Shown here: piece by piece, positions 1-50,472 of the stretch
How positions within the stretch are numbered: position 1 is the first letter of the stretch
Layout: the number at the start of each line of letters is the position of its first letter
DNA from: Promethearchaeota archaeon
Lineage (GTDB): Archaea > Asgardarchaeota > Lokiarchaeia > Sigyniarchaeales > SOKP01
Length of the DNA stretch: 64,000 nt
Direction of reading: 5' to 3'
Assembly (NCBI GenBank): GCA_019057865.1
Contig: JAHLWP010000017.1
Location: 1 to 64,000, forward strand
Notes under the pieces: generated by a model
The model's input: the letters and a program-made list of their open reading frames with translations, nothing else
What the model was told of the DNA's origin: nothing
The model's database searches: none
Position numbers and translations under genes: made by a program

Positions 1-17
1 ATGTACTTAGGACCACT

Positions 18-1976
18 ATGAAGCATTCTTCGATTGAATCACAGGCACAAGTAAGTGAGATGAAAAATAGTTTGCAGACCCAATCCTTAAAGGATGCGGG
101 GGGTCAGCTTGTTATGTCTACTCTTATGCTATTTAGTGGTTTCTTACTGGGTACATTTGTTCCTGTGGCTATAGCAGGTTCTTTAGCACCCGTTGTTATT
201 ACAATGGTGAATTCCAAGATTGCTAAGGATTGCTCAATTAAAACAATGCTTGAAGACTCGGTTGATATTCAGGCAGGGTTGGTTCCTCAGCCTTTGCAAC
301 AATGGTATTTTGAGTTTTCAGATGCGACTCAGTCAGTTTGGTATCATGATTTAGAACAGGCTTTACTTGATGTGACGAGAGCCCTTTCTGAACCACAAAA
401 ACCTGTTATCACTCAAGAGATGATTGATAAAATTAAAGCTTTAGGACCACAATCCCTTGTTGAGAAGATGGCGCTAGAGCAAGGGCTACCATTAGAGAGA
501 GTTGGAGACTTTTTCACCTTGTTACCTTCTCGAGGGGCTGCCCATCCATCGATTAAGTTGCTCGAAAGAATTCGTAATATACTCTCCAGTATTGCCTCAG
601 TTAAAAAGTGGGGTGGTAGAGTCACAGATGCAGAATTTCAACGAGTATTGGGTTTTGGAGATTCTTTCATTAAGAAAATTAATAAAAAGATATCAGCTGG
701 TGTAGGTCATAATTTTGATACCAATTCGCTGCAAAAGATGGAGTTAAAGATAAGATCTTTTTCTGAAAAAGGTTATTATCTTGCACGTGCTGCAGTAAAT
801 ATTTACTTGAGTAAATACGATAGTAAAGGGAGACTTATACATGATATAGGAAGAGTTTTTGCTCAACATTTGAAGAAGCCCATCTCTACTCGAAGTCTAT
901 CTAAATTAATTGGTAGATCATCTAGTTATTTGCAGGATTTTATAACAGGCATGCATTCTAAGACTGGTTTACCTCGTGAAGATATTTTTACACATTCAGT
1001 TTTACATATTTTAGTCGATATTTTTAATTTAAAGCATACAAAGATGGGTATTGATTCATGGGTTCTTGAAGATATTAAAGAAGAATGTTTTAATGTAGTT
1101 CAAGATTTTCTAATTGATGAAGGTAAGCTTGATAAATCAGCCAAAAAGCAATTTAAAGTAATTTTCAGTGTCACTCATACATTATCAAAAGCTACTAATT
1201 CTTTTTATTCACCAGCAAGGCTTAGTTTAGAGATGAGTCAACAACTTTATGGAGGAGATAATACACAAGTAATTACGACAAAATTAGTTGACGGTTCTAA
1301 AATTGATACCAAGCAATGCAAGTGGCTAAAACGTAAGCTTAGAGCTTACATATTACATGCGACTCCTGAGGTACTTGGAACTATTAGAGATATTAATTTG
1401 TATTATAAAAAGTCGAGTAGGACAAGGACAAAATATCATCCAAGATGGTATGATCCGGATATAGTAGCTGAGCATTTATATACTTTACTTATAGAACAAT
1501 TAGGATTTTGTGCTTTAACATTAGAACCACTTGAGGATAAATGTAAAGATCCACTTATTGGTTGGATAAGACATCATATTGATGAAGATACAATGAGCAT
1601 TGATCTTGATAAATTGGCAATAATTATTTCTAGGATTCATGTGAGTTCTAAATATTTACCTCATAAATATCAAGCAGGAGTGTCTAAGCGAGACGTATTG
1701 CGAGTTAGGGCTCGGATATTATATAATCGAAAAGTAATTAAGGATTTAATTGATTTAGATAAAAAGATTATTGATGAAAATGACTTACCACTAGCGTTTA
1801 GAAAGCAGTTTAGAAAGCAAGAGTATATTGATTTATTTATTAAACGTAGAAATGAATTCAGGCAAAGGGGTGAAGATATATTTTTTGAGCCAGGTGGTTT
1901 TTATGAGAATTTTTATCAACTATATAAAAATCAGTGGTTTTGGAGCACTCATTATCTCAACTTTTTAAAATTTTAA
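18..1976 (+). CDS. C-terminal part of a large protein: hydrophobic segment, degenerate HTH-like repeats, HNH-like nuclease domain (probably 5'-partial)
   Basis: Frame is open to the window edge (GTA CTT AGG ACC ACT ATG). Contains EQLGFCALTLEPL...IRHHIDEDTMSIDLDKLAIIISRIH (HNH-like) and HTH-like segments VTDAEFQRVLGFGDSFI and ISTRSLSKLIGRSSSYL. Confidence 0.6.
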   Translation: MKHSSIESQAQVSEMKNSLQTQSLKDAGGQLVMSTLMLFSGFLLGTFVPVAIAGSLAPVVITMVNSKIAKDCSIKTMLEDSVDIQAGLVPQPLQQWYFEFSDATQSVWYHDLEQALLDVTRALSEPQKPVITQEMIDKIKALGPQSLVEKMALEQGLPLERVGDFFTLLPSRGAAHPSIKLLERIRNILSSIASVKKWGGRVTDAEFQRVLGFGDSFIKKINKKISAGVGHNFDTNSLQKMELKIRSFSEKGYYLARAAVNIYLSKYDSKGRLIHDIGRVFAQHLKKPISTRSLSKLIGRSSSYLQDFITGMHSKTGLPREDIFTHSVLHILVDIFNLKHTKMGIDSWVLEDIKEECFNVVQDFLIDEGKLDKSAKKQFKVIFSVTHTLSKATNSFYSPARLSLEMSQQLYGGDNTQVITTKLVDGSKIDTKQCKWLKRKLRAYILHATPEVLGTIRDINLYYKKSSRTRTKYHPRWYDPDIVAEHLYTLLIEQLGFCALTLEPLEDKCKDPLIGWIRHHIDEDTMSIDLDKLAIIISRIHVSSKYLPHKYQAGVSKRDVLRVRARILYNRKVIKDLIDLDKKIIDENDLPLAFRKQFRKQEYIDLFIKRRNEFRQRGEDIFFEPGGFYENFYQLYKNQWFWSTHYLNFLKF

Positions 1977-1987
1977 TTATCTTTTTT

Positions 1988-2821
1988 TTAAAGTAAAAAG
2001 TTTTTAAGGTCTTTACTCATTTCGGAGTTTATTTTTTTATCAAAATTTTCAGAAGCATATTCTGCTTTATAAAATACTGGACAGTCCTTCTCAAAAAGCT
2101 TACATGTATATTCATTAGGATTATTTCTTGTTTTAGAGATAGTACATAAAAATCCATAAGGGCACATTTTGAGTTCGTGGCAAGGTTTAAAAAACTCAGG
2201 CCGTAAATATTTGCTAAGATGTCTAAACCGTATACGCTCAACAGTATCACTTAACTTTTGTTCGGGGAATTTTTTGGAATCTTCCGTAATTTCCTCAGAA
2301 ATATAAAAAACTGGACAATCATGACCAAAGATTTTACAAGTATATTTAGTCTGTTTCCTTCGAATCCTAAATGCTTCAGTTACACCACCATAAGGACACC
2401 AATTAAGATTATAACATGGTTTTTTTGCATTATCATTTACTATAATGCCTTTATTAAACCATCTTTTAGGATCTAAATTCTCCTGCATATCGTGATAACA
2501 ATCTTCACAAAACCATCTATCATAATAAGAATCGTAAATCATATCTTTATCAGAAATATCTCCCTTACAAAATCCTGAACAATGTAATATAGAATGATGA
2601 TAGGTATTTAAAAGATCATTATACTCTTTATTAAGTTGAATTCTTCTCTTTTCATCAATAGGAGAATATCCATTAAAATATCGATTTTTCCAAGCCATTT
2701 CACTAGATTTTGATATATTCTTAAGTCTTTTCTCAATTACAAGTGAAAGCATCCTCCTTAGATTTTTCCTAATATTTTTTAAACTTTCATGTTTTATTAC
2801 GATTTTTCGTCCATCTTTCAT
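1988..2821 (-). CDS. Cys-rich Zn-finger protein, paralog of 48803..49378, with a duplicated KPC-x5-CPYG...C-x2-F-x2-DCPVFY module
   Basis: N-terminal KIVIKHESLKNIRKNLR and SDKDMIY-x6-WFCEDC match the 48803 protein; internal repeat visible in the translation. Confidence 0.75.
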   Translation of the reverse strand: MKDGRKIVIKHESLKNIRKNLRRMLSLVIEKRLKNISKSSEMAWKNRYFNGYSPIDEKRRIQLNKEYNDLLNTYHHSILHCSGFCKGDISDKDMIYDSYYDRWFCEDCYHDMQENLDPKRWFNKGIIVNDNAKKPCYNLNWCPYGGVTEAFRIRRKQTKYTCKIFGHDCPVFYISEEITEDSKKFPEQKLSDTVERIRFRHLSKYLRPEFFKPCHELKMCPYGFLCTISKTRNNPNEYTCKLFEKDCPVFYKAEYASENFDKKINSEMSKDLKNFLL

Positions 2822-2934
2822 TTCTAAAGATAAAAAACTGATAAATATATTTTAACTGAAAATGAATATTCTAATGATAAAAAAAGAATTTTGATATATA
2901 AAATTAAAGGTTAATAAAGGATTAGAATATTAAT

Positions 2935-2961
2935 TATTGGTCCAATAAATTGGGCGTATAA
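2935..2961 (-). repeat. Stranded, synonymously recoded copy of the 3' end of the 3088..5343 gene (LYAQFIGPI)
   Basis: tta tac gcc caa ttt att gga cca ata versus ttg tat gct caa ttc atc ggt ccg ata at 3118..3144: 9/9 residues identical, 7/9 codons differ. Confidence 0.85.
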
Positions 2962-3087
2962 GCATTTTTTAAAGCTTACATGATTTTTTAATATTAAATT
3001 GATTATCTCTCAGGATAATGACCTGCTATCGATTCTCTTTAATTATATAGAGTTTTAAAAAGAAAGAATAGATTAAAAAAGACCTTT

Positions 3088-5343
3088 TTACTTTATAGGG
3101 CGAGAATTCGCCTGGAATATCGGACCGATGAATTGAGCATACAATTTTGCATACTGAGACTGATTGCTCACAATACTAATCATATCACCTTCTTTGGCAG
3201 TGTAAGGGCCGATTATGGTCTCTTCCGCGTCCCGGGTCACTGCGAAAAACTCACCGGCAGTGGATAATTGTCTGAATTGAATATTCCCAAGTTGCTTCAT
3301 CTTCGCGATAATGCCGGCATATTTGCTCAAATCCCATTGGGAGGTAAGCATGAATCGTGCCGCCTTTCTCTGAAAAGCAAATTCAGAAACGACTTGTAAA
3401 ATTTCAGGGATTACAACGGGAGTCACAATAATTATCGATGATTTTGTTCTATATACAGCATCTTTTATGGCTGCAATCATTGCATCGCGTCCAACTACAT
3501 GCCAAGTTGTAACTTTAGACCTTTCTGGAATTGAACTAGATGCATGATGGATATCCTTCAATTTATCTTCATTATTTTCAGCTAATTCTGTACTATCATC
3601 GATGGAATTCATGAATTGGAGCGTAAAATCAGCGATGGCATCTTTAATATTCTGTGTGGTGTCACGAGTAGTATTTGATAAACTATTTTGTAATGTTTTC
3701 GCATTTTCTTCATATTTGGATTTATGATCAGCTAGCATATCTGTTAAACCTTTATCTAATTCACTAGTTTCTCCATTCCATAATTGAATCTCGCTATTAA
3801 TTTTATCAGAGCAATCTCTTTTCCCTCCAGAAAATTTACTATCTACATCTCTAGTCCAGTTTTCATTAATTCTTTTAATTTCAGTGTCAAAATCAGTGTA
3901 ATGTCTTAAAGAGCCTTCTTTATGCCTATTAATTGTTTCGTCATATTGTTTATGATGTTGTTTTAAAGTACTTTCTGTAGAATCCTTTAACTTTAAGTTG
4001 GTATCAGAGCAGTCTTTTACACCACTTTGCAGTGTATTGTTAATTTCAGACGCCATATCTGTCGCTAAGCTCTCTAATTGTGCATCAATTGTCTCTTGAG
4101 CTTTGTAATCAAGATCAGTGGTTTCAGAGCCTAGTCCATCATTTTCTTTAGTCATTATATCAGTCACGTCGGTTTTTATCTGATCAGTTGTTTCTCTGGT
4201 CGTAGTAATATAATCCTCACTCGTTTTAACAAAATCATCTTTCATAGGTTCAGTGTAAGTTAATATATTTTGTATGGTAGTCTCATGTCTAGCTTTATAT
4301 TTTTTCTTTTTTCCAAGCCAGAAAAATCCTTTTTTAGCCATATCTTCTGAAAAATCAGTAAAACGATTAGCATGTTCTAGAAGATTATCAATTAAAGTAA
4401 GAGTCATACTTTTAAATTCATTAGTTTGATCAGTTAATATTCTATGTCTTTCATCAACAGTTGCTTTTAAGTTGGTTTGAAGTATATCAGTAGTGTTTTT
4501 CACATGATTCATATGCTCTTTTAATAGGCCAGAAATTCTTTCTTTTAAATCAGTAACTACCTTATCCATTCTCTCGAGATATTTTTCTAAAATCTGTTCC
4601 ATTTTTGGTTTTAGTTCCTTTGCAGTATTCTTATGTCTTTCTACGTGCTCATCTAACTCCATTTTCAATTCTTTATCTAAATTCTCCACACGAGTTGAAA
4701 AATCATTTAACAAATCTGCAATTAAAGTTGTTAAATTATCTTTTGTTTTATTGACAGTTGACTCATTGTCACCTACAGCTGTAGTTGAAATATTCTTTAA
4801 ATCAGTGTTTAATGTACCCATTATTGAGTGAATATTAGTCTCTAATTCTTTAGTAGTTTCTGTAAAGCGAGTTCTTGCATTATCAATTTTATTTTTCTTA
4901 ATATTATTTTTTGAGTCAGAATCTTCGAAAAATGCTTTAATTTGGCCATCAACAGCAGTTTCAACTTCTCCTATACTTTTGTTTTGTATAGCTTCAAGTT
5001 TTTCAAAACGGTTAGATTGATCTGCTAAGATATTATCTTTTATTTTAGCAATTTCATTTCTAAAGAGTTCTGATTCAGTTGTAAATAATTCGAAGTAGGG
5101 TTCAAGAGGGATGTATCTATCTACAATACCTTCAACTCTTTTAAGAAAACCTTTCTCAACTAACCAATTTGTAATTTCTAATACTTTCTCATAGGTTAAT
5201 TCCTCATGTTCCTCGGTTAGAGTCATGTATACTTCAGAAGCTGTTGCACGAGGCACTCTTAAATAAACTATATATATATTAATCTGTTCTTCAGCGAATC
5301 CATACCTCGTAAATACTTCTTTAGTGAATTCTTTTAACGACAT
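3088..5343 (-). CDS. TrmB-family-like regulator: N-terminal wHTH, about 500-aa helical insert, C-terminal PLD-like effector domain
   Basis: YGFAEEQINIYIVYL...ATASEV...LVEKGFL (TrmB HTH) and WHVVGRDAMIAAIKDAVYRTKSSIIIVTP (TrmB/PLD-like C-domain). Confidence 0.7.
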   Translation of the reverse strand: MSLKEFTKEVFTRYGFAEEQINIYIVYLRVPRATASEVYMTLTEEHEELTYEKVLEITNWLVEKGFLKRVEGIVDRYIPLEPYFELFTTESELFRNEIAKIKDNILADQSNRFEKLEAIQNKSIGEVETAVDGQIKAFFEDSDSKNNIKKNKIDNARTRFTETTKELETNIHSIMGTLNTDLKNISTTAVGDNESTVNKTKDNLTTLIADLLNDFSTRVENLDKELKMELDEHVERHKNTAKELKPKMEQILEKYLERMDKVVTDLKERISGLLKEHMNHVKNTTDILQTNLKATVDERHRILTDQTNEFKSMTLTLIDNLLEHANRFTDFSEDMAKKGFFWLGKKKKYKARHETTIQNILTYTEPMKDDFVKTSEDYITTTRETTDQIKTDVTDIMTKENDGLGSETTDLDYKAQETIDAQLESLATDMASEINNTLQSGVKDCSDTNLKLKDSTESTLKQHHKQYDETINRHKEGSLRHYTDFDTEIKRINENWTRDVDSKFSGGKRDCSDKINSEIQLWNGETSELDKGLTDMLADHKSKYEENAKTLQNSLSNTTRDTTQNIKDAIADFTLQFMNSIDDSTELAENNEDKLKDIHHASSSIPERSKVTTWHVVGRDAMIAAIKDAVYRTKSSIIIVTPVVIPEILQVVSEFAFQRKAARFMLTSQWDLSKYAGIIAKMKQLGNIQFRQLSTAGEFFAVTRDAEETIIGPYTAKEGDMISIVSNQSQYAKLYAQFIGPIFQANSRPIK

Positions 5344-5375
5344 AAATTTTTCTCCATATTTCGATTAAAAACAAA

Positions 5376-5409
5376 ATGAATTCTATATTAATATGAATTC
5401 TATATTAAT
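5376..5409. repeat. Perfect 17-bp tandem duplication (ATGAATTCTATATTAAT x2) upstream of the TrmB-like gene
   Basis: Read directly from the sequence. Confidence 0.85.
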
Positions 5410-5597
5410 ATTTTAATCTGAAAGGATTTAATAATATTTTCATAATGATTAAATAAAAACTTAAGGTTTTAAGCAGTTGATTTTTTCTTCTTAAATCTTC
5501 TCTGTAATTTTTCCTTTAATTGGGAAAAGTTATTCCTCAATCCTTTTTATATCAATTTAATTCTTTTAAGTTAGACCAAATTAGGTGTTTAAAGAAA

Positions 5598-6269: not shown

Positions 6270-6348
6270 GCAACCAATTTTTTAAAACTAAAATTTTTTT
6301 TATTTTTATTAATTAAATTAAGAAAATATTACCAAAAATTGAACTTAT

Positions 6349-7605: not shown

Positions 7606-7848
7606 AAGCTTATTTTATTTATTCTTAATCAATTTATCATGATGTATTTATTCCATTTCAATGATATTGCTAATTATTCTCTAAAAAAGGAGAAAGAGTT
7701 TTAAATTTAAAATTTAAAATTATTAATTCTGAAACTCATTTAATATTAAATATTGTCATCATTTTAAATCATAGTTAATTTAAGATTTGATTTAATAATT
7801 TTTAATTCAATAAAATGATAATAATTATATTAAAAATAATGAACTGTA

Positions 7849-8355: not shown

Positions 8356-8369
8356 AAATATTAGCTATA

Positions 8370-9539: not shown

Positions 9540-9629
9540 TATTCTTTCCTACATTTTAATTATGTAATTATAATCATATAATATTAAATAATAAATATAG
9601 CTTTATTAGATGGTAAAGAATATAATAAG

Positions 9630-11222: not shown

Positions 11223-11264
11223 TATTTTTTCCTGGAATTAATAAATTCTTCATGAATTTCATGG

Positions 11265-24974: not shown

Positions 24975-24981
24975 AACATTT

Positions 24982-35775: not shown

Positions 35776-36029
35776 AGAATTAAAAGTTGTTTTATTTATA
35801 GCTAAGAAATATATCTGTAGAAATTGTGGAAGAGAAGTTTAAGGCTCAAAATAAAATTTCTTTTTTTATTAATTTTATTATCTTTTTTTATACTTTTTTT
35901 GATTAAAATACTTTAGTAAATAATAAAATGATTCTAAAACATCTTAATTAGATTTTTAACTATAATATAATTTACATTGTTAATCAGAAATTAAAATCTT
36001 CTTTTGCGGTGTGCTTATAGATTCCTCGA

Positions 36030-38090: not shown

Positions 38091-38105
38091 ATAGGTCAGA
38101 ATAAA

Positions 38106-38588: not shown

Positions 38589-38623
38589 AAAAATTTAATA
38601 GATCGGAAGGTGATTTTAATCAT

Positions 38624-39691
38624 ATGTCAGATGATCATGAAAATCATGAAGAAGAAGATAAATCCATAGTTGATGCATTATCGACATTAGGCTGGGTGGA
38701 GGAAAAAGAAGAAGAGGAGGGATCACCTCTAGGAACAGAAGACAATCTCATGGAACAACTTAATCTCTTCATGAATGAAAATAAGAAACTAACTGAAGAT
38801 TTAAATGAAAAAAATAAAACCATAAAAGAATTAAAGACAAACGTACAAGAACTCACCCAAAAGATTGAAGATAATGCAACTCAAGGTCAAGCCATTCAAA
38901 AACTTTATGAAACAATTGAAGATAAAAATGATGAGATTGAAAAATTAAATAAAATTAAAACTGATCAAATAGAAAAAATTAAGGATTTTACTTCTCAAAT
39001 TGAAACGATTAATTCTGAACAAACTCAAAATCAGGATTTATTAGAACAACTACAGGAAAAGGAAAATAAAATTAAAGATTTAAAAGAACAACTTCAATAT
39101 CTTGAAACTGATACCATACAAAAATCTAAGTTTGAAAAAGCTGAAGTTCTTTTAGAAAGAAAAGATGAAATAATAACAGAAAAAGAAAAAGCTATCTTTG
39201 ACATTGAAAATTCGTTAAAATCTGCTAATCAAAAAATTCATGATCTAAAACGGCAACTTGAAACTTTTTCTTTATTGAAGAAAGATTTAGAGAAAAAAGA
39301 TGAACGAATTAAACAATTAGTAGTAGAAATTGAAGAATTGAAACAAAAAAATATAACTAATTCAGCGCTTATAAGTCGGCTTGAAGAACGATTAGAAGAA
39401 GCTCAAGAAAAATCGGGTCATATAACTGGTAAGTTTGAAGTAGAATTAGCTCATATGAGGAATATAATTGATGGAAAAGACTCAGAAATTAAAGAATTAA
39501 AAGAAAAAGCATTTGGGATGGAAAATAAATTAAGTGAAACAGAAAAAATAGAGGAAAAATTATTATCTGACATTCAGGATATTAAAGATGACAAATTAAA
39601 ATTAGAGTCTGAATTAGAAAAGAAAGATCAAGAATTAGTAGAATTAAAGAAAAAAATTAAACTAATGCGAAGAGATTTATCAAAATCGTAA
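38624..39691 (+). CDS. Long coiled-coil protein
   Basis: E/K/L/Q heptad-rich over about 310 aa after an acidic N-terminus. Confidence 0.75.
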   Translation: MSDDHENHEEEDKSIVDALSTLGWVEEKEEEEGSPLGTEDNLMEQLNLFMNENKKLTEDLNEKNKTIKELKTNVQELTQKIEDNATQGQAIQKLYETIEDKNDEIEKLNKIKTDQIEKIKDFTSQIETINSEQTQNQDLLEQLQEKENKIKDLKEQLQYLETDTIQKSKFEKAEVLLERKDEIITEKEKAIFDIENSLKSANQKIHDLKRQLETFSLLKKDLEKKDERIKQLVVEIEELKQKNITNSALISRLEERLEEAQEKSGHITGKFEVELAHMRNIIDGKDSEIKELKEKAFGMENKLSETEKIEEKLLSDIQDIKDDKLKLESELEKKDQELVELKKKIKLMRRDLSKS

Positions 39692-39733
39692 TTATTCTTG
39701 ATGCTCTTCATTCTTTTAAAAAATTAAAGAAAC

Positions 39734-39875
39734 TCAAAATAAATTTTTTGAGTTATGCAAATATTATTGAGGGTACTGTGATTGTGAGATTATTTTTAAT
39801 GCAAAATCTCGGTTATTAAAATATTGAATCTATTTTCCTAAATATTTCACATATTAAGCTTTTTTTAAAAAAGAT
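39734..39875 (+). repeat. Imperfect direct repeat of 49285..49428 (decayed DUF2695 gene 3' end plus junction motif)
   Basis: Translates QNKFFELCKYY*GYCDCEIIFNAK; about 80-85% identical by hand alignment; ends in TAAGCTTTTTTTAAAAAAGAT. Confidence 0.9.
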
Positions 39876-40151
39876 GAACCGCACTATTTGGTATCAGTGG
39901 AGTATGATAAAAATCTTAGAATCTACTTCTTTTCTATAAGTGGTCTGCTATTAAGAGGAGAGAATTTTGTAATAACTCTCAAATTAAGGAAGAAGATTAA
40001 AAAAAATACAGTGAAAGAGTACAGCATTCCATAAATTCTTCAAAACCAAGATAAACAGTTTGATATTTATCAAACTATAGTAAAAATATTTAAATATAAG
40101 AGAATTATAAATTTAGATAAGGCAAAATGAATTAATATAATTAGGGAAAAA

Positions 40152-40520
40152 ATGATAATACCAGAAATATGTTTAGCCTGCAAATGGGCAATTGGAAATG
40201 ATTGTCGCTATGATAATGATTGCTGGAGTCTTTCTCCAAGTATCACCTGTTTTGAGCCTAAGTTTGATTCCTCATATTCTAATCCAAGAAATTTTCTAAA
40301 CCAATGGCTAATAGTAGAAACTATCATGGAAAATTTGGCAAAAGTAATAACTAAAAAAAATTCAATTGATTATCAATTAAAGACTCAACTAAAAGCCATT
40401 ATAGAACATTATTATGCTGTAAAAAAACTTAAAAAATTATATAAAGCACTCCAAAAAGATTTTGAAAAATACTCTCATATTTTTAACAAAAGCCTTAAGA
40501 TTCTAACATTGGAAGACTAG
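40152..40520 (+). CDS. Hypothetical protein with Cys-rich N-terminus
   Basis: CLACKW...C...C...CFEPK; island context. Confidence 0.55.
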   Translation: MIIPEICLACKWAIGNDCRYDNDCWSLSPSITCFEPKFDSSYSNPRNFLNQWLIVETIMENLAKVITKKNSIDYQLKTQLKAIIEHYYAVKKLKKLYKALQKDFEKYSHIFNKSLKILTLED

Positions 40521-40649
40521 AAAAAAATAAAGGAATTACACCCTTAACCATTATTAATTGTAGAAGAAAATTAAAAAAAGACTTATATAATCAAGAACAG
40601 CAAATTTTTATAGAAGAAAAGAAAAGAATTCCGAAATGAAATAGAAAAA

Positions 40650-40901
40650 ATGTTTGATTACTTCGTAGAAATCGGCATTCTTGAAGAAGCAGAAGAAAAT
40701 GGGGAATCCATATTTCGAATAAAAGATCCCGAAGTCATATCTTTTAACCAAGTTGAACTAATAGAATTTCTAAATCAAAAAAGGTTGGATGCCATCATGA
40801 ACAAGTGCCAAGAAGCCAATGATAAACGCATTGAGGAGTTTAAAAAGGATCCTAACATTACCTTTCATGAGCCATCAGTAAGTAAAAAAAGAAAACAATA
40901 A
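40650..40901 (+). CDS. Hypothetical small protein
   Basis: 83-aa ORF with ATG start. Confidence 0.5.
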   Translation: MFDYFVEIGILEEAEENGESIFRIKDPEVISFNQVELIEFLNQKRLDAIMNKCQEANDKRIEEFKKDPNITFHEPSVSKKRKQ

Positions 40902-40916
40902 TATTTCACTTTGCAA

Positions 40917-41198
40917 TCAATAAGTACTGTGAAAATCTCCTTCACATACCTTATTTTCTTCACGCTTTAATTTTTTCAATAATTCATAATAGTTAGGAGT
41001 GGGATATTCCTCTAGGATTTTTGACCTATTTATGAGTATAGATCTAATAGCTTCCCTATTAGGCACATTCTTCATTATTAATAAGTGAGTAGTGGGAATG
41101 TAATGCTTAAAATCCCAACCATTATCCAAAATAAATTGTACATAAAAGGGGTGGCTCAATGGTAATTCTTGATTAAAAGTGACAAGTAAAAACCACAA
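40917..41198 (-). CDS. Hypothetical small protein
   Basis: 93-aa ORF downstream of the TFB fragment; start uncertain. Confidence 0.45.
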   Translation of the reverse strand: MWFLLVTFNQELPLSHPFYVQFILDNGWDFKHYIPTTHLLIMKNVPNREAIRSILINRSKILEEYPTPNYYELLKKLKREENKVCEGDFHSTY

Positions 41199-41236
41199 AA
41201 TTTACTAATAACTCAAGTTTGTAATGTTAGATATTT

Positions 41237-41704
41237 CTAATGCTCCCGTATCCGTGCTCGTATGGTAGCGTCAGTGAGTTCCGATACCTTTCCCAGTTCT
41301 ACCTGTGTAATCTTTATATTATTCTTTCTATACACTAAATAAATTGAAGCTGCCGCATACCCACAAGGATTCTTCCCATTAATAACAGAGGAAGGTAGGT
41401 TTTTCTGTATAAACTGGATAGCCAAGTGTTCCACATACGATTCCAATCCAAGTTCGGATACAAATTTCGGAATGTAGTCAACAGGATCTTTTTGATAAGA
41501 GCTTAAGCCCAACTTTTTTACTATAAGAGTAAAGCACTTTTTAATATGCTTAAAGGAATTAGTGGCATTATTTTTAATAGGACTCGTATTTTCTGCTATT
41601 TCCTTAAGAGTAATCGGATACCTTTCCTTCTTACAACAATAATATAGACAGGCAGACGCTATGCCGAGTATACTTCTTCCTCTCATCAACTTTTTCTTAA
41701 GCAC
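41237..41704 (-). pseudogene. 5'-truncated TFB paralog (cyclin repeats only)
   Basis: RGRSILGIASACLY, GKNPCGYAAASIY, ITQVELGKVSELTDATIRAR; upstream frame closes with no Zn ribbon. Confidence 0.75.
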
Positions 41705-41855
41705 CTGTAAATATAATCGTGCTGCCGAATTATAGATAGTGTCGCTACTACACCAGAAGATGATCTTAGATTCAAATTTTGCATAAATATAGCTCTAAAT
41801 CATTTATATTATATTTTTACTAAAGGATAGCTTTAAATGTAAAAATAACTTCAAG

Positions 41856-44318
41856 ATGCATAATCCAAAATCAAAAAAAAAGAAGATTTTTATGAGACTA
41901 CATTTAAATAAAGTTATTACAATCTTAATACTATTCCTTTTATGTGCAAATATTATCATTCCAATGTCTACCTTTCTAGATAATAATAGATCAATCTTTT
42001 TGACGGATCATTCGCAATCCTACTCAAATATCAGTAACGGTTCTGGAGCTCTAACTTTAAAGGTTGGTGCAGCTTCTGGCCCTCGTGATCTTGATCCGAT
42101 CAATTCATGGGATAGTTTTTCAAATGATGTGATTGAACAAGTAGCAGAAGGTCTATTTTCTTACAATTATTCTGATGTTAACTTACCCCGAATAAATTTA
42201 CTCGCCCAAAGTTATTGGTGGGAAAATAATGTGACCCTTCGAGTACAATTAAGGCAAGGCATTCAATTCCACGATGGTACTTCATTTAATGCCACAGCTG
42301 CTAAATGGAACTTCGATAGGATAAATTATTTTATAAACGCTACAGGAACCCTTCCAGGAACTGTTCCGATTGCTCAAACGGAATCATTATGGAGGCTACC
42401 AAATGGCGAACCGATTATCAATAATACCGCGACTGTTGGTGATTATAATATTACCATCACTTTGAATGGTGTCTTTTCACCTTTCTTAGATTTACTATGC
42501 TATACAAATGCTTATATGCTTTCCCCAACCTCAACTCCGGCTACGGACTGGATAGTTCTTACAACAGGAGACTTGGTTGGAACCGGTCCTTTTACGTATG
42601 TTTCTTATACACCAGATGTAGAAGTGAGATTTACACGATTTGATAATTATTGGAGAGGACCAGCATATTTCTATACCTTGATTTTTGTTATCATCGAAGA
42701 TGCAACAGCCCGAAGTAATGCTATGCTAACTGGAATGATTGATTACGTATTTAGGCCTTTACCTTCTCTATATGATATTTTTGAAGCAAATACTACCATT
42801 ACAGTAAAAAGGTTTACCGAAGAAACTGGAAAGGCCAGCTTGATTTACCACTACCTTGGTATTAACAATCATAGAATTAACAAGACTATGAGACAGGCTA
42901 TGGCTTGGGCTTTTCCTTACGATTATATGCTTGAGGTAATGTTAGAAGGATTTTTAGGAATACGAGCTTATTCACCAATTTCTCCTGGTTTCGGGCCAAT
43001 TTATAATGAATCTGTTAATTATCCTTACTTTGATTTAGCGAAGGCAAGGCAAATATTACTTGATGCCGGAGTTGTTTCTGGTTTAACTGCAAATAATGAT
43101 ACTACCGGTCCCGTAGCAGATGCATGGAAAGCCGCTGGTATTGCCACCTATAACTATACCGCTAATATTGGTAATGCTTTTAGAGAAGGTCTGTTGGTGG
43201 TTCTCCAAGACGCTTTCAGCCAAATCGGTATTACAGTAACGGACAATCTAATGACTTGGTCAGAATTCCTTGACATCTTACTAAATCCAAGTAGACATGA
43301 TGAATTAGAACTCTATTTCATAGGTTGGTTCCCTGATTATCTCGATCCTTGGAACATGTTAGATCCATTATTTAATCCTGCCTCAGCATCGAATTCTGCA
43401 CAAGTGAATGATCCATACCTAACCGCCTTGTTGCAAGCTATGCTAGAAGAACTTGACCCAGATGTTAAAAATGACCTGGTTAAACACGCTCAATGGTATT
43501 TTGCTGAAAATAGCTTCCACCTATATGCATATCACCCCACTATTACTGCTGTTCATGCTGCAAACTTGAAAGGAGTAGCTTATAACGCTATGGATAAATG
43601 GCAGGCATATCCTATCTATCGTGAGTTAGGACCTATACCCGGTCCTTTTACATTACTATCTACTGCAGAAGATCCGGATGAGGATGGTGAATTTGATTTA
43701 GTATGGTCAGATGCTGAGGGTGCTGTGAACTATTCAATATATCAATATCATAATTTTATAACCGAAATTAATGGAAGTTTAATACCTTTAGCTACTGAAA
43801 TTACTGATCTTACAATACATTTAAGTGGATATGCTACAGGTACCTATTATTTTATTGTAGTTGCCCATAATGAGTATGGAGATACGCTTTCCAATTGTAA
43901 GGAGATAATAGTAGATCTTCCTCTTCCAGGCAATTTCATACTATTATCTAATGCGGGAGATCCTGATGATGACGGCGAATTTGATTTAGTATGGTCAGAT
44001 GCTGAGGGTGCTGTGAACTATTCAGTATATCAATATCATAACTTTATAACCGAAATTAATGGAAGTTTAATACCATTAGCTACTGAAATTACTGATCTTA
44101 CAATACCTTTAAGTGAATATACTAATGGAACTTATTATTTTGTTGTAGTTGCCCATAATGAGTATGGGGATACCCTTTCCAATTGTATTGAAGTAGAGGT
44201 CGCTATTCCTCCTACAAAGGGAGAACCAGAGATTCCAGGATACAATTTATTATTAATTGTTGCTGCTTTAGGTGCCACCATAACCCTGCTGCTTAAAAAA
44301 AAGCATAGCACAATATAA
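41856..44318 (+). CDS. Family-5 ABC substrate-binding protein with two FN3-like repeats and a Loki-CTERM-like anchor
   Basis: FHDGTSFNATAAKWNFDR, GTGPF; C-terminal EIPGYNLLLIVAALGATITLLLKKK. Confidence 0.92.
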   Translation: MHNPKSKKKKIFMRLHLNKVITILILFLLCANIIIPMSTFLDNNRSIFLTDHSQSYSNISNGSGALTLKVGAASGPRDLDPINSWDSFSNDVIEQVAEGLFSYNYSDVNLPRINLLAQSYWWENNVTLRVQLRQGIQFHDGTSFNATAAKWNFDRINYFINATGTLPGTVPIAQTESLWRLPNGEPIINNTATVGDYNITITLNGVFSPFLDLLCYTNAYMLSPTSTPATDWIVLTTGDLVGTGPFTYVSYTPDVEVRFTRFDNYWRGPAYFYTLIFVIIEDATARSNAMLTGMIDYVFRPLPSLYDIFEANTTITVKRFTEETGKASLIYHYLGINNHRINKTMRQAMAWAFPYDYMLEVMLEGFLGIRAYSPISPGFGPIYNESVNYPYFDLAKARQILLDAGVVSGLTANNDTTGPVADAWKAAGIATYNYTANIGNAFREGLLVVLQDAFSQIGITVTDNLMTWSEFLDILLNPSRHDELELYFIGWFPDYLDPWNMLDPLFNPASASNSAQVNDPYLTALLQAMLEELDPDVKNDLVKHAQWYFAENSFHLYAYHPTITAVHAANLKGVAYNAMDKWQAYPIYRELGPIPGPFTLLSTAEDPDEDGEFDLVWSDAEGAVNYSIYQYHNFITEINGSLIPLATEITDLTIHLSGYATGTYYFIVVAHNEYGDTLSNCKEIIVDLPLPGNFILLSNAGDPDDDGEFDLVWSDAEGAVNYSVYQYHNFITEINGSLIPLATEITDLTIPLSEYTNGTYYFVVVAHNEYGDTLSNCIEVEVAIPPTKGEPEIPGYNLLLIVAALGATITLLLKKKHSTI
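43641..44187 (+). repeat. Intragenic tandem duplication, period 288 bp (96 aa)
   Basis: GAATTTGATTTAGTATGG at 43689 and 43977; near-identical DGEFDLVWSDAEGAVNYS...HNEYGDTLSNC. Confidence 0.95.
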
Positions 44319-44678
44319 AAAATCTAAATTTTTTTTTTATTTTATCATATAAAAAGCTTTCTAACACGAGATAAAAAAATTATAATTAATATTTAATTAT
44401 TCTACTTAACCTAAAATTATTATTTAAATATAATGCCAGATAATAAAGTGCCTGAACCAGTTGATGGACTCAAATTCATAGACACGCATTGCCATTTACC
44501 TTTATTGTTGAAGAAGAGCAAAATATTGCTATAAATGATGAGACTTCTAGTAAAATCATCAATAAAAAAGAGAGCAGTCTACAAATCAATAAATTTGAAA
44601 GAATCATAATGGATATTGGAATCCTTATTAAAGGAGGATATAAAATTGATTGAAAGGTAAATTCAGAATCCGATTTCA

Positions 44679-45763
44679 ATGAAAATTCCTTTGGAAAAAA
44701 CGAAGGAAAAGGTAAGAAGATTGAAAATTATTGGAGAATCGATATCTGGTATACCTGAACTACAATCAGGTGCAGAAGTTCCTGTTAGATTGATGCCAGA
44801 AGGTACACAATATGAAAAGGGAGATATCATAGTATTTTATAGAGATGAAATAAAAATCATCCATCGAGTTGAGTATATCCAAGAATCTAAGGGAAAGATA
44901 TTCTATGTTACTACAGGATTAAATGCTGAAACCAATCAATATGTAGACAGTAGTCTTGTTTCCCAAGATGATGTTATTGGAAAGGTTGATCACTCGAAAG
45001 AGGCTTACCTAGAACTTAATGAAATGATAGCAAGAAGATATGTACCATTCATAATAGCTTATAGAATGACTCATAATTTAGAAGTTGAATTAACGAATTT
45101 TATGGAGAAGAAAGAAGCAGTATTACAAAACGCTTTAAATATAGTAATGAAGAAGGGTAAAAAAGAGGATTACAATTAATATCATCTAGAAATTCGAATA
45201 AGGAATTAACTTTTGAGGAATTTACATCAGCATATAAAGAAGCATGGATTAAAATGGGAAAATATGGAAATGCTAAATTAACATGGAAACATGTTGGTAT
45301 TAACAATGATGGTTGTGGTAAAACATTTATAAACAGTTACAATAATCTTAGAGATAATATTAGTAATTGTCCAACATGCGATAGTCCATGGAAAAATCAA
45401 AACAAAACTCATAAAATATTAGAAGTTCTATTCGGACAGGAGTTTGGAGAAGAAGTTTATTTAAGAGATATTAAAGAAATCATAGATAATATTGAAACCA
45501 ATCCCAAATACAAAAAATATAGGAGACAAATGGATGTATTCCAGATGAGGTTAGATGATAATGCTAAATTGAATATTAAAGATAAAAATGGAAATTATAT
45601 TAAGTTAGCAGTTGAATCTCAGGGATCTCAACATTACGAAAATGATAAAGGTTGGAAAGCAATCTTGTTTTTTACAATTTTGATGGTAAAGAAAGAATTA
45701 AAAATAATTTTATCTAAATTTCTTAAAAAACAAAATGAATTATTGTTTTTCAACTCTCTTTAA
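44679..45763 (+). pseudogene. Remnant 3' part of a large protein: S26 signal-peptidase-like domain, Zn ribbon, PD-(D/E)xK nuclease; frameshift in the A6 run at 45159..45164
   Basis: GES...GDIIVF...IIHRV...TTGLN...VIGKV; one added A gives GKKRGLQLIS...KLTWK...CGKTF...CPTC...RLDD...LAVESQGSQHY. Confidence 0.65.
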
Positions 45764-46074
45764 AATTATATTATACTAAAAATAGTTGAATATAATAATT
45801 TCGATTGGCATTTTAATTTTAAAGCATAATGAGAAAAAAAATTAAATAAATATATTTTAGTTGCTGAAATTCAAAAGCTCAGAATTCCTTGCTCATTAGA
45901 ATTTAGATCCGAAAAGTTTGTTTATTTTCTATATCCGTATGACATTAATGAGAGGATATGATTTCTCAAATCTAAATTAAACGATATTGATAACTATTTT
46001 AAAAATTATCAAAACAAACCCATAAAAAATGATCAAGTAATAAGTGATTCCTTCTTTCTAAATTGTATATATAT

Positions 46075-46178
46075 TAAGCTTATTTTTAAAAAAGATAAAA
46101 ATAAATAATTGATTTTGATTTTCGGGGCTATTTCTCACGCCATTGGATATCACACTGACCACAGAGATATTTCTTTCC
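46075..46178 (-). repeat. Stranded copy of the gelsolin gene 3' end plus downstream 53 bp (repeat of 49406..49509)
   Basis: GKKYLCGQCDIQWREK* versus GKKYRCGLCSVEWREK*; non-coding part about 90% identical. Confidence 0.9.
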
Positions 46179-46358
46179 ATCTTTAATCAATATTCCTCTG
46201 GAAATAGTACTGTTGTTCTTGATCGATCTGCTTCTGTATATATAAGAATAAGATGAAATAATTCTTAAATCATGTTCTAATGAATAAAGATTCTCCTTAA
46301 AATCTTGCTCTGGAATCTCTCCAAAATCTCCCAATAAATGCCTTTTAAGGCAATTCAT
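46128..46358 (-). pseudogene. Chimeric ORF: truncated plasmid/ICE-type RHxxGDWG protein joined to the gelsolin 3' relic
   Basis: FCQFVMNCLKRHLLGDFGEIPEQDFKENLYSL...RIISSY, then a switch to GKKYLCGQC. Confidence 0.6.
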
Positions 46359-46474
46359 TACAAATTGACAAAAAGAGGGTTCTTTTTCTATTCTTTTATG
46401 TATTTGAAGAATAAAAATAATTTTACCATAATCAAATAACTTTAGGTTTTCTATTTGTCTTAAGTAATAACTTT

Positions 46475-46789
46475 TTAAAGCTCTCTCTTTCTTATAATAG
46501 GTTCTTTTTGTGGTAAAAGGTCGTATTCATCTAAGAGCATAGCATAATTTTGCATTTCTTCCTTACCAAAAAAATTTAAATAATCCTTATATTCTTGCTC
46601 TGTTTCAAAAGATGGTGGTCTCTTGCGTCCAGAATAACATAAGGCAGAATCTATTATATGTCTCTTTAAATCTGCTTTTTCTCTTGTAAAGTGGCGTATG
46701 TCATATCTTCCTTTATAGATATTTCCATCTTCAAATTTAACTTCAAAAAAGGTCTTCAAATATCCATATTTATCTTCTTTGGTCAACAT
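46475..46789 (-). CDS. Mobile-element protein, possibly LPD25-like
   Basis: GYLKTFFEVKFEDGNIYKGRYDI resembles my recollection of the LPD25 motif; needs HMM confirmation. Confidence 0.45.
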   Translation of the reverse strand: MLTKEDKYGYLKTFFEVKFEDGNIYKGRYDIRHFTREKADLKRHIIDSALCYSGRKRPPSFETEQEYKDYLNFFGKEEMQNYAMLLDEYDLLPQKEPIIRKREL

Positions 46790-46828
46790 TTGTGTTGTTA
46801 TCTTTCAGTTAGCTCACCATATTTACAA

Positions 46829-47005
46829 TCAATAATTCAGATCATTATCACATCCAGAACAATGATAACATACCTCATATAACTCTTCCTCTGAAAGTTT
46901 CTCAAAGCAATCTCGACAAAAACAACAACAATCATCATACGATCCTTTATACTCCTCAAATTTTCCACATTCCTCACATTTTTCAACCCTAACTTTCCAA
47001 GACAT
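46829..47005 (-). CDS. 58-aa metal-binding microprotein with 10 Cys (not in the ORF track)
   Basis: MSWKVRVEKCEECGKFEEYKGSYDDCCCFCRDCFEKLSEEELYEVCYHCSGCDNDLNY; GGTGAG SD upstream. Confidence 0.65.
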   Translation of the reverse strand: MSWKVRVEKCEECGKFEEYKGSYDDCCCFCRDCFEKLSEEELYEVCYHCSGCDNDLNY

Positions 47006-47024
47006 ATATCAAATCTCACCAATT

Positions 47025-47237
47025 TTACTTAATATCATAATAGGCTTCTTGTAAAAAGAAATCAGTATTTCTCTGAATATAATTATCTATTATCTCTGGA
47101 ATTCTAATCTCCAAATTTTCAATAAGATCTTCGTAATCTACTCCTTTAACTTCGGCAAAATCTTTTATCTTTTCAGTAGGAATCTTAATAACAAAATTTA
47201 CATTTACTCTAGAAGTATCATTCTTCTTCCCATTCAT
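47025..47237 (-). CDS. Small virus/plasmid-like hypothetical protein
   Basis: Starts 2 bp after the stop of the upstream small ORF. Confidence 0.6.
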   Translation of the reverse strand: MNGKKNDTSRVNVNFVIKIPTEKIKDFAEVKGVDYEDLIENLEIRIPEIIDNYIQRNTDFFLQEAYYDIK

Positions 47238-47239
47238 TC

Positions 47240-47404
47240 CTAATTATCCCTCTTCTTTCTCATTACTTTTACAATTTCAAAAGAATTACTAACATATTCT
47301 CTTGGTAATTCCACATTTTCGGCTTCCATAATGGCTTCCTCTTCACTTTCTGCCTTAAAAGTATATTCCAAATTTATATTTATAATAACGGTAAATTTAG
47401 CCAT
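47240..47404 (-). CDS. 54-aa virus-like protein with an AESEEEA motif (not in the ORF track)
   Basis: MAKFTVIININLEYTFKAESEEEAIMEAENVELP...; GGAG SD upstream. Confidence 0.6.
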   Translation of the reverse strand: MAKFTVIININLEYTFKAESEEEAIMEAENVELPREYVSNSFEIVKVMRKKRDN

Positions 47405-47595
47405 TTAATCATACTCCGTACAACGCCAATTAGGATTAAATTTAACATCCGTATTTTTTACTATTTTTATTTTTTAGAAGATTTTAACCTAACTCCCATA
47501 TATTGATGTTCAAAACGGTCTATAAATATGATTTTTAGAGGGAAGACTTAAAAAAAGAAACGACAAAAAAAAAAAAATAATTATTTTTTCATTTC

Positions 47596-48270
47596 TTAAA
47601 AAGGAAAATAATAGATCCCGATGGTTATAAAAAATCCTACTATATAAGAACCAATAAAAAGAGTTAATCCTGAATAAATGAATTTGTAATCTGAATTTCT
47701 TGCTCCATGAATAACAAACAGACCAAATGAAATACTTAATAATATATTGAAGAAAGATTGAAGAACTGCTATTAATTTTTGGAAATCTGTAGTACCTGGT
47801 TCAAGATGTAACAAATATTTGAACATATGAGCAATTCCCCAGTTTAGAGTAATTAAACTCAATCCATAATAAATCAACCATAATATAGATGCTGCCAATA
47901 AATACAATCCAAATGCTTCCTTATTAATACGTGAATACATAAAAAGTAAGAGACTGGCTACGAAAAGGGGAATAGTAGTGATTAGTCCTATAAATATAAA
48001 ATAATTCACAACCATAGTCCTTTCTTCCTCAGTTAGGTATACATAATAAAAACCTTCTGGCAAAAAAAGAGGTATAAATCCACAAATCATACCTAGTAAT
48101 GCAAACACACTCAAACAATCAAGTTCATGAGAGCTTTCTCTATGTTCCTTAGCTGAAAGAAAGATAAATAAATATAAAATGAAGTTAATTATAGTACCTA
48201 TAATCAGAGGTAATCCTAAATGCATAAAATACTCGGGATCATATTGTAAATATTCAAATTTAAGAGTCAT
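47596..48270 (-). CDS. Multi-pass membrane protein (about 6 TMs)
   Basis: Hydrophobicity pattern. Confidence 0.75.
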   Translation of the reverse strand: MTLKFEYLQYDPEYFMHLGLPLIIGTIINFILYLFIFLSAKEHRESSHELDCLSVFALLGMICGFIPLFLPEGFYYVYLTEEERTMVVNYFIFIGLITTIPLFVASLLLFMYSRINKEAFGLYLLAASILWLIYYGLSLITLNWGIAHMFKYLLHLEPGTTDFQKLIAVLQSFFNILLSISFGLFVIHGARNSDYKFIYSGLTLFIGSYIVGFFITIGIYYFPF

Positions 48271-48432
48271 GATTATCTTCTTTTAATTAATTGAAGGGAT
48301 TTCTTAGTTTAATTTATTGAGTGATATAATAAAAAAAAATATATTAAGATTCCCCTAGGTTTTTTTTATTTTACTATTGTTATATCCGTCTTTCAAGGAA
48401 ATTCCCAATATAAGTTATCAGATGGTAGAACA

Positions 48433-48732
48433 GTGTTAGAATGGTGGAAGTATGGTAGTTCCATTGCAAGGAAGGTTCATTCATCAAAGATGTTTTCAGA
48501 TAGATTAAAAAGTTTTAATGAGCGAATAGAGTATTTAGTTGATCATAATTATGATTATGAAGCTTGGTTGAATAAATTTTATAGTAATAATTCACCCGAT
48601 TGGATTGCAAAAGGCAAGATTCAAATGGATCAATATCAGTGGATGGTGGACAAATTAAAACACTTGCGTTATTATGTTCACTTAGAGGATATTGATCTTG
48701 TAAGGGAGTTGTGGGGAATCTGGACACCATAA
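48433..48732 (+). pseudogene. Probable orphan C-terminal tail of a larger protein
   Basis: Frame extends upstream (QGNSQYKLSDGRTVLEWW) with no good start; weak similarity to the tail of 18..1976. Confidence 0.4.
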
Positions 48733-48802
48733 AATTTAAGGTCTCGATAAGATTATATATCTAAATTATTTTATTTATTTAGTTATCTGTTTTTTTATTG
48801 TT

Positions 48803-49378
48803 ATGAAGAAGGAAAGAGCAATCATAATTAAAGATCCACGGCTTCAGAAAATTAGAAATGAATTGAGAACCTTACTAAAGTTATGGAAGGAAGATATAGT
48901 AAATTCTCTTAGGGTTAAGGCTTCTGAGTATTCTGAAGGGGGTGATGACCAAAAATCTAGAGATACTCGAAGGAAGATCTCAGAATTAGATTTGTTACTA
49001 AAATTATCCATTTGTACCTGTCTACATTGTGGTCATAGCGATAAGGATATGATATATATCCCTAAAATGAAGCAATGGCTTTGTATTGAATGTAATTCGG
49101 AACGCGTATATTTTGAGAAATTGAGAAGTGAGCTTCGAACAGATATGAACATGGATGACATACGAGAATTTTTGGACAGGTTGATGGGAGATGAGGGCAT
49201 CGGTCTAACACGCTTCGGGTCGAGATGCCATGGGTTTACTTACTCTAAGAGGATTCTGGATAAGATGGGAATCGATAAGGGGATTCAGGATAAATTTTTT
49301 GAGTTATGTAAATACTATGGAGGGTATTGTGATTGTGAGATTATTTTTAATGCAAAGCCTCAATTATTACAAGAATGA
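48803..49378 (+). CDS. Zn-finger protein (paralog of 1988..2821) with C-terminal DUF2695 domain
   Basis: AIIIKDPRLQKIRNELR; CLHCGHSDKDMIY-x6-WLCIEC; GGYCDCEIIFN. Confidence 0.8.
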   Translation: MKKERAIIIKDPRLQKIRNELRTLLKLWKEDIVNSLRVKASEYSEGGDDQKSRDTRRKISELDLLLKLSICTCLHCGHSDKDMIYIPKMKQWLCIECNSERVYFEKLRSELRTDMNMDDIREFLDRLMGDEGIGLTRFGSRCHGFTYSKRILDKMGIDKGIQDKFFELCKYYGGYCDCEIIFNAKPQLLQE

Positions 49379-49458
49379 ACCCATTTTCCCAGTTTATTCA
49401 CATAATAAGCTTTTTTTTAAAAATAGATAAAAATAAATAATTGATTTAAATTTTCGGG

Positions 49459-50472
49459 TTATTTTTCTCTCCACTCTACTGAACACAGTCCGCAGCGGTA
49501 TTTTTTACCGTACATCCTCGGGTAGTCGAGTATAACATTGCTTTTATCAATACTTTCATGAATTAGATCCTTATTTTCATTCCCACATTCAGGGCATTTT
49601 CGGCGACCTTCTATCTTTTCAATAGTTATTATCGAATCATCAACTTTACCCGGTATTCCCGGCGCAGCACCAGAAGCACTTGGGGGTCTAGGTTTGGAAG
49701 CAGCAATTATATCTGCTTTTATTTCTTCTGGAGTAACCTCTCTTATTTCTGCTTTACGTTCTGGCTGAATTTCTGCTACAGCTTTATCTGCTGCGGTCTC
49801 AGGCTCTAATACAGATTCAGCACGTAATTGTACTGCATCAGATTCTTTGTAATCTACTCCTCTTTCTAGAGCTGCAAAGAACTCGGCATCATCCCCCTCT
49901 TCATAAATTGTTTCGTTTTGTAAACCAGCTCGATCGGCATCGATTTGTCTGGCCCATTGACCTGATTTTACACGTTCTTTAACATTGGAGTCCCCTCCAT
50001 GCCAAATATATACTTTGTTACCCAAATCTGCTACATAACAATCCTCTGATTCTAAGGATTCTTTAGAAAATGGAACTTGTATCATTTTCATGGTATTAAT
50101 ACCTTCAAATTCTTCAGATGAGACGCGATATAAAACATTTTTCCACTCTGAGAAACCTGCCCAATCACCGGTGCTTACATCTTTTAGTAAGGTTTTTGCC
50201 ATATTTTTTTCAACAACTTTCATTGCCCCCATAGTATTAACTAATTTTAAAAACTCAGAAGTTTCTTGATTTTGATCCACTGTAATAATTCTAGCTGCTC
50301 CCCCTCTTTCTTGATCTAATTTGCGAGCTTGAGCAGCTCCTGCAGTTTTCTCGTCTACAGAACACTTGCTCCCGATCCAAACATAAATTGTACGTTCATC
50401 ATCTAAAAGGTATGTATCTCCCGTGGAAAACACTGGTTTTTTTACTTCTTTTAGTTCCCCTTTATCAATCAA
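49459..50472 (-). CDS. Two-domain gelsolin-like actin regulator with Pro/Ala linker and C-terminal Zn ribbon
   Basis: FSTGDTYLLD...IYVWIGSKCSVDEK and LESEDCYVADLGNKVYIWHG...VKER; CPECG...CGLC. True start may be ATA at 50484. Confidence 0.9.
   Translation of the reverse strand: MIDKGELKEVKKPVFSTGDTYLLDDERTIYVWIGSKCSVDEKTAGAAQARKLDQERGGAARIITVDQNQETSEFLKLVNTMGAMKVVEKNMAKTLLKDVSTGDWAGFSEWKNVLYRVSSEEFEGINTMKMIQVPFSKESLESEDCYVADLGNKVYIWHGGDSNVKERVKSGQWARQIDADRAGLQNETIYEEGDDAEFFAALERGVDYKESDAVQLRAESVLEPETAADKAVAEIQPERKAEIREVTPEEIKADIIAASKPRPPSASGAAPGIPGKVDDSIITIEKIEGRRKCPECGNENKDLIHESIDKSNVILDYPRMYGKKYRCGLCSVEWREK

Follow-up and report, generated by a model that had tools for sequence, protein, structure and literature searches.

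The stretch of DNA analysed here, referred to as the window, comprises bases 1-64000 (64,000 nucleotides) of contig C30 (JAHLWP010000017.1) from a metagenome-assembled genome (MAG) of a Promethearchaeota archaeon (4.26 Mb, 29% GC). It contains two conserved genes, encoding a TrmB-like protein and a gelsolin, each accompanied by a stranded copy of its own last codons, by tails of nuclease-tipped proteins and by a Zn-finger gene (Table 1). A first-pass annotation had reported two such end relics, two Zn-finger genes, a third Zn-finger relic and three tails, and all of these features are present where it placed them. Comparison with relatives, of which the named ones belong to the Promethearchaeota, suggests that both loci are decayed remains of one Promethearchaeal giant-protein nuclease system and not of an integrase element. 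In the following, G denotes a genome, L a locus and C a contig of the source genome. The first base of the contig is also the start of the window, so the large open reading frame (ORF) at 3-1976 is open on its left side.

Table 1. Features of the TrmB-like and gelsolin loci (GC3, GC content at third codon positions; UTR, untranslated region).
Feature	Position	Strand	Basis
C-terminal end of giant surface protein, with HNH nuclease tip (about 1434-1667) behind hydrophobic hairpin and helical region	3..1976	+	Open at contig start; HNH motif and fold
Zn-finger partner gene, family N-domain and two Cys-rich repeats, facing the nuclease	1988..2821	-	Co-oriented canonical layout at same site in L342/L343
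Stranded 9-codon copy of TrmB-like gene end	2935..2961	-	End-copy scans
TrmB-like core gene	3088..5343	-	Last 100 codons GC3 0.46 vs 0.18
Last 26 TrmB codons, synonymous hypervariable segment, candidate nuclease target	3088..3165	-	Eight-strain comparison
Coiled-coil gene, left flank of empty gelsolin site	38624..39691	+	30-130 nt from gelsolin end in most relatives
9.8-kb layered insert: three nested cassette remains and captured cargo (TFIIB-like, ABC solute-binding protein, small ORFs)	39692..49458	.	Missing in relatives
Decayed 3' end (DUF2695 half) of older Zn-finger partner gene and its junction	39726..39860	+	Similarity to 48803..49378
Frameshifted orphan tail, S24/S26-like peptidase and Vsr/PD-(D/E)xK-like nuclease	44679..45763	+	Intact homologue in G006 (L082)
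Displaced native gelsolin end, 17 codons and its UTR	46075..46178	-	Differs from L356 allele at 7/51 nt, live end at 17/51; UTR type as in close relatives
Last ~120 codons of HNH-tipped giant, catalytic part deleted	48379..48732	+	51% to 14,832-aa giant; 71% to longer gelsolin-site tails in L306/L307
Zn-finger partner gene with C-terminal DUF2695	48803..49378	+	Homology to 1988..2821
Gelsolin core gene, replaced 3' end (about last 45-50 codons)	49459..50472	-	Allele comparison with relatives

At the TrmB-like gene, eight near-conspecific strains have a mean synonymous distance of 0.047 over codons 1-600 and of 0.517 over the last 26 codons, an 11-fold acceleration that is limited to the 26 codons proximal to the cassette (the nuclease tip and its partner gene). 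Polymorphic codons make up 96% of this segment versus 19% elsewhere, and the end of a neighbouring gene, used as a control in the same strains, gives 0.059. The site is occupied differently from strain to strain, by an HNH tail with a flipped Zn-finger gene, an HNH tail with a co-oriented one, an entire Vsr-like giant or orphan partners; other strains have an empty site, and these too differ from one another at the gene end. All eight strains retain two residues in this end that occur in only 3 of 30 genus alleles, which argues that, for that part, the variation was not imported from other sampled species. The 3' GC3 patch of the gene ranks third of 2943 for local GC3 patches. A general excess of synonymous change at 3' ends was not found (0.098, 0.101 and 0.103 for the first 40, middle and last 40 codons), and a diversity-generating retroelement was rejected because the third-position differences involve all four bases and are not adenine-specific.

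The stranded copy beside this gene encodes a peptide identical to the gene end with seven third positions changed, and it stops short of the stop codon; with 4 vs 7 of 27 nt, it is too short to decide displacement. Exact 8-aa self-copies within 1 kb were found for 13 of 3655 genes and for none in an other-gene control, so the short relic is not a chance match. In G006 an independent TrmB relic starts four codons later. The Zn-finger gene at this locus of the window faces the nuclease and does not lie behind it, which amends the first-pass annotation. The TrmB layout was recovered in independent samples (L336 and L337), in which the homologue of 3-1976 extends further left, and in the close strain L338 a complete 10,175-aa giant with a Vsr-like tip converges on the TrmB-like gene. 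The Vsr-like tip at this site has a different partner, a 201-aa gene, which is orphaned in G012.

The gelsolin relic consists of 17 codons at 46128-46178 and is continued by a near-identical 3' UTR over about 55 nt. Relative to strains at a synonymous distance of 0.09-0.10, 7-12 of 51 nt are different in the relic and 13-17 of 51 in the live gelsolin end, and the last 45 live codons resemble G012 instead of these strains. Because the relic is nearer to the end of close relatives than the live end is, the native gelsolin end was displaced and the live end is a replacement, as had been proposed from the sequence of the window alone. Comparison with G012 only had suggested a non-native relic, which proved wrong once closer strains were compared, and the idea that the UTR common to gelsolin and relic is element-borne was dropped since closer empty-site strains carry the same UTR. 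Cassettes at the gelsolin site occur in G000, G018, G052 and three metagenome contigs, and empty alleles, which the first-pass annotation had anticipated, are found in relatives at both the TrmB and the gelsolin sites. The arrangement is not a misassembly: unitigs from the source run cross the relic and the gelsolin-Zn junctions with no differences and even depth, although they come from the same data set and are not independent.

The insert left of gelsolin is layered. The older Zn-finger relic, previously placed at 39734, is present at 39726-39821 (78% identity to the gene at 48803-49378, one stop) but matches only the DUF2695 half, and the segment 48433-48732, listed before as a possible giant tail, proved to be the last ~100 aa of one. 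At four different loci, members of the 48803 clade adjoin genes with a terminal GKxYxCxxC motif, which is present in 3 of 3674 genes; an orphan gene end at 35804-35833, KKYxCxxC, is of the gelsolin-tail type. A dispersed repeat of about 47 nt at 44652-44698 has six further copies of 89-95% identity (C75 and C71 twice each, C34, C37) and provides the apparent start codon of ORF 44679; the repeat is also present in the island beside the rps11 cassette. In addition, 41237-41704 within the insert is a TFIIB-repeat fragment, and the genome has about ten TFIIB-like paralogues.

Single ORFs 12,736, 12,455 and 14,832 aa long were identified in relatives upstream of the Zn-finger gene; they end in the same HNH family. 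The first-pass annotation had correctly read the window's tails as ends of large proteins with HNH and PD-(D/E)xK nuclease domains, but it missed these 10-15k-aa surface giants. They have N-terminal transmembrane (TM) clusters, LamG, Ig and lectin matches in the stalk and one hydrophobic hairpin about 1000 aa before the end, and a TM-like segment lies ahead of every tip. Each giant is preceded by a ~100-aa gene and, divergent from it, a small winged helix-turn-helix (wHTH)-like gene and a gene for a ~570-aa surface protein, and is followed by a tip-specific partner and then a conserved host gene; the four complete cases each comprise a single 10-15k-aa gene, a partner and a protein gene. A SuFu and TPR gene (L105:2205-3785) adjoins the gene for the ~570-aa surface protein in a decayed element.

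The bodies of the giants are constant (47-76% alike over thousands of residues) and the tips are exchangeable. The body common to 3-1976, the C3 giant and the L338 giant ends in HNH, LAGLIDADG-like (weak Pfam match, E 0.009) and Vsr-like tips, respectively; the common part covers the first 170-190 residues of 3-1976, with 79% identity to the C3 tail over aa 1-170 and 64% to L338. Tips are 500-1000 aa long. Every complete giant seen terminates in a nuclease; these nucleases are of several unrelated types, and the junction behind the hairpin is fixed. The HNH-fold domain of 3-1976 carries the motif RHH..H and has weak but consistent fold matches to Cap5, Cas9 and McrA HNH domains (best Z 6.2); Atlas features for the tip are all under 0.9 and serve as a lead only, and a metagenome scan with 3-1976 gave no matches. 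The HNH tip family was found in 49 of 161 class genomes, and these all belong to one family. Stand-alone members of the HNH tip family include a 544-aa protein (rps11 clade) and an 874-aa protein that is flanked by an isomerase gene and by a duplicate of the last 194 codons of that gene, so one nuclease pool supplies both the giants and small homing-like cassettes. Intact stand-alone endonuclease ORFs between duplicated ends are present at other loci of the genome but not in the window, which holds truncated giant tails only, with the TrmB nuclease lying beyond the relic.

The two Zn-finger genes of the window are homologous over about 100 aa (33%, E 9e-9), and the family occurs in 43 of 54 genus genomes. 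By hand count, a co-oriented Zn-finger gene lies just downstream in 37 of 47 genus HNH matches, and tip and partner similarities co-vary (Mantel rho 0.52). Partner genes are thus tip-specific by linkage and co-variation and match no known immunity family or fold; fold and Atlas searches with the Zn-finger protein returned only DUF2695 and weak rows. They are kept after tips decay, and stalks are deleted while tip and partner stay. Orphan cassettes and partner arrays are found in the window (39726-49378), as six Zn-finger copies in G014 and as orphans at actin, in agreement with the toxin/immunity-like arrays proposed earlier.

Across the genome, a search with the last 30 residues of 3674 genes recovered non-paralogous 3' relics scoring at least 60, of which 35 lie downstream and 8 upstream; the opposite strand has none. 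Eight of 30 relics lie near these nucleases against a 2% background (p about 1e-7), an association that the first-pass annotation had predicted, and a live foreign end with a displaced native end is seen not only at gelsolin but also at two other nuclease loci of the genome, ACS (11 vs 50 of 213 nt) and MoxR (2 vs 9 of 48 nt). The annotation's proposal of one element family defined by the Zn-finger gene was not supported: this gene partners the HNH tip only, other tips at the TrmB site have the 201-aa partner, and 22 of 30 relics flank unrelated cargo, on which ground end replacement is a general habit of the lineage and not the mark of one element. An FrhB-like gene (G000 C31:48135-62563) has a replaced 3' half with its old end 13 kb off behind a heterodisulfide-reductase cluster, and there is no nuclease in that cargo. 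As reported before, the window holds no integrase; five PF00589 recombinase matches in the genome are all on other contigs, and none is among the core genes scanned, with the flanking islands scanned in part.

Repeated entry at conserved gene ends, another element of the first-pass annotation, is evident from the recurrence of cassettes beside few conserved genes: actin (9 loci) and rps11 (at least 9), which are the commonest sites, gelsolin, TrmB-like, psmB, gyrB and ATPase B. Tip clades largely follow the host gene (an rps11, an actin and a psmB clade), with exceptions. Actin and rps11 also have the two highest GC3 values of 178 conserved genes (0.34 vs a median of 0.16; other genes resembling ribosomal protein genes, median 0.18), and high expression was ruled out as the cause for rps11 by rps4 (0.13) and rps13 (0.16). 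GC3 patches lie on the cassette-facing side in some genome (TrmB 3', gyrB 5', C39_5144 3', SMC 3'), with gyrB 5' and C39_5144 3' ranking 6 and 7 of 2943. Relative to G012, the actin protein is 99.7% identical while 0.27 of synonymous codons differ, whereas genes that conserved show 0.02. A complete G003 element has no actin relic at its far end.

Several further features of these host genes were recorded. Many genomes have a second Lokiactin copy of 82-96% identity; in G067 (L048:2620-6493) it lies directly against a Zn-finger gene and HNH tail and is possibly a spare allele. Several lineages (L039, L045-L048, L051, G000 C31:63919-65064) have the actin gene in inverted orientation with respect to its flanks, and in G022 the last 15 actin codons recur as an inverted copy on the 5' side of the gene. 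L043 (G023) encodes a 444-aa fusion in which the first 282 residues are those of another gene and the last 128 those of actin, with a Zn-finger gene behind it; no full Lokiactin was found in G023, an 81%-complete genome. The rps11 gene looks split or interrupted in G022, G042, G050, G006 and G023 (L041 and L091 among the loci), in some cases beside Zn-finger genes, possibly by small introns. RNA polymerase A' (G000 C27:27716-30322) has a 19/25 synonymous patch relative to G012 and RNA polymerase A'' (G000 C27:26510-27709) a GC-rich end, neither with an adjoining cassette in G000.

The explanation that we favour, with a probability of about 0.5, is that contact-delivered, sequence-specific nucleases target the end of the neighbouring gene and are escaped by recoding. 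The stalk would deliver the tip into a touching relative, where the tip, as a homing-type sequence-specific nuclease, would cut near the adjacent end of the conserved gene, and cells would survive if they have a synonymously recoded end, the partner gene or both. The first-pass annotation had likewise suggested that a recoded end may resist renewed targeting. The break would be repaired from foreign DNA with the conserved gene as the sole homologous anchor, and such one-sided repair would install the donor's recoded end together with the tip-partner cassette and leave the old end stranded downstream. With repetition and with loss of the costly stalk, this process would yield layered tails, orphan partners and hypervariable gene ends, and no integrase would be necessary. 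More tentatively, and at slightly less than even odds in our judgement, the system may be a contact-delivered, sequence-specific nuclease weapon against essential genes of kin (actin, rps11, gelsolin, TrmB-like), with synonymous recoding as the means of resistance and cassettes spreading through break repair. It would then combine a polymorphic toxin with a homing gene drive and shape the codon usage of Asgard core genes.

Several observations weigh against targeting with recoding. Close tips sometimes lie beside different genes (L053 vs L059; L037; several loci of the 48803 clade), so a strict target model must invoke relocation. The proximal-end GC3 test over all 17 nucleases placed 4 in the top decile (p 0.08, not significant), GC-biased conversion at a recombination hot spot could raise GC3, and rps11 alleles of carriers are no more alike than those of non-carriers, with sites near saturation. 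The genomes are kin, so p-values overstate significance. Like classical immunity genes, Zn-finger genes often occur as orphans and in arrays, and protein immunity would make recoding unnecessary. Such orphans and arrays fit a classical polymorphic toxin-immunity system, in which tips would be non-specific DNases, the Zn-finger protein the immunity protein, and recoded ends foreign alleles; cassettes would pass between species by homology-facilitated illegitimate recombination anchored in the conserved neighbour, with GC-biased conversion lifting GC3. The way partners follow their tips, the SuFu-domain gene in one island and the unrelated cargo beside most relics also suit it, and the same mechanism has been proposed for type VI secretion system (T6SS) arrays in Vibrio (PMC5361080). 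However, close strains retain clade-specific residues inside the hypervariable segment, each empty-site strain has its own end as well, and the two independent TrmB relics begin within four codons of each other. In addition, the stand-alone cytoplasmic members at rps11 and the isomerase act like homing cassettes and one tip is LAGLIDADG-like, a class that is not in the text of the toxin survey. We consider this explanation less likely than targeting with recoding, though the strongest of the alternatives.

Those stand-alone relatives with end duplications also fit purely intracellular homing, in which free-standing nucleases and an accessory gene became fused in frame to giant adhesins, the last hydrophobic segment (as seen before every tip) holds the nuclease in the producer's cytoplasm, the S24/S26-like domain frees it, and homing takes place only after DNA exchange, with no toxin delivery. 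In-phase fusions of mobile ORFs (mORFs) are known (PMC3630166). However, complete giants that all end in nucleases of unrelated types at a fixed junction, partners that persist after tip decay, and stalks that are lost while tip and partner remain make it the more doubtful of the two alternatives. Chance repeats or assembly artefacts might be suspected from a TrmB relic of just 27 nt in a MAG with 5% contamination, but in view of the scan controls, the difference-free unitigs and the same layouts in other samples and genomes they are hardly credible.

Compared with known systems, the one favoured here appears to join the protein layout of polymorphic toxins with the DNA behaviour of mORFs and intronless homing. 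Like bacterial polymorphic toxins (CdiA/CdiI, Rhs, T6SS effector-immunity arrays; PMC3482391, PMC5361080), it has a long stalk, an exchangeable C-terminal nuclease and a dedicated downstream partner, and orphan tails and partner arrays that reflect successive displacement; unlike them, it has an archaeal, membrane-anchored scaffold of 10-15k aa, homing-like tips of 500-1000 aa, an essential host gene instead of the toxin gene as the likely recombination anchor, and a neighbouring host gene that is hypervariable at synonymous sites. Fungal mitochondrial mORFs (Allomyces atp6; Glomus atp6, atp9, cox2 and nad3; PMC3630166) likewise replace a native end with a foreign one and strand the native end behind the nuclease ORF, with empty alleles and no integrase, whereas here the loci are chromosomal and archaeal, form layered arrays, and have a nuclease that converges on the gene, has a partner and tips a giant surface protein. 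In intronless homing by free-standing phage nucleases (T4 Seg/Mob; PMC2988022) a nuclease also lies beside a conserved gene and the carrier allele differs, with a cleavage site hundreds to thousands of bases away; here the host is cellular, with no known co-infection route, the carrier is a giant, there is a partner gene, and cleavage is predicted only. Heimdallarchaeum aloposons (PMC8813620) are also Asgard mobile DNA with giant genes, but they comprise two tandem genes of 3-6k aa at tRNA sites with a MinD/ParA gene, which excluded an aloposon for the single nuclease-tipped giants beside protein genes. The literature searched, which had few subscription papers, yielded no description of such giants or of toxin-linked recoding of host genes. 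What is new here is the link of the giants with end-replacing cassettes, and the strain-level recoding.

If the favoured explanation is true, Asgard archaea would have a kin-competition system in which toxins are tied to homing elements through one nuclease pool. It would explain the mosaic, oddly coded genes of the most conserved Asgard proteins, Lokiactin included, and would affect phylogenies and gene-flow estimates built on such genes. The neighbouring gene would predict the target of each nuclease, and the tips may be a source of new long-site nucleases. Even on a duller reading, an 11-fold synonymous hot spot at the end of an invariant protein is a measurable footprint of conflict.

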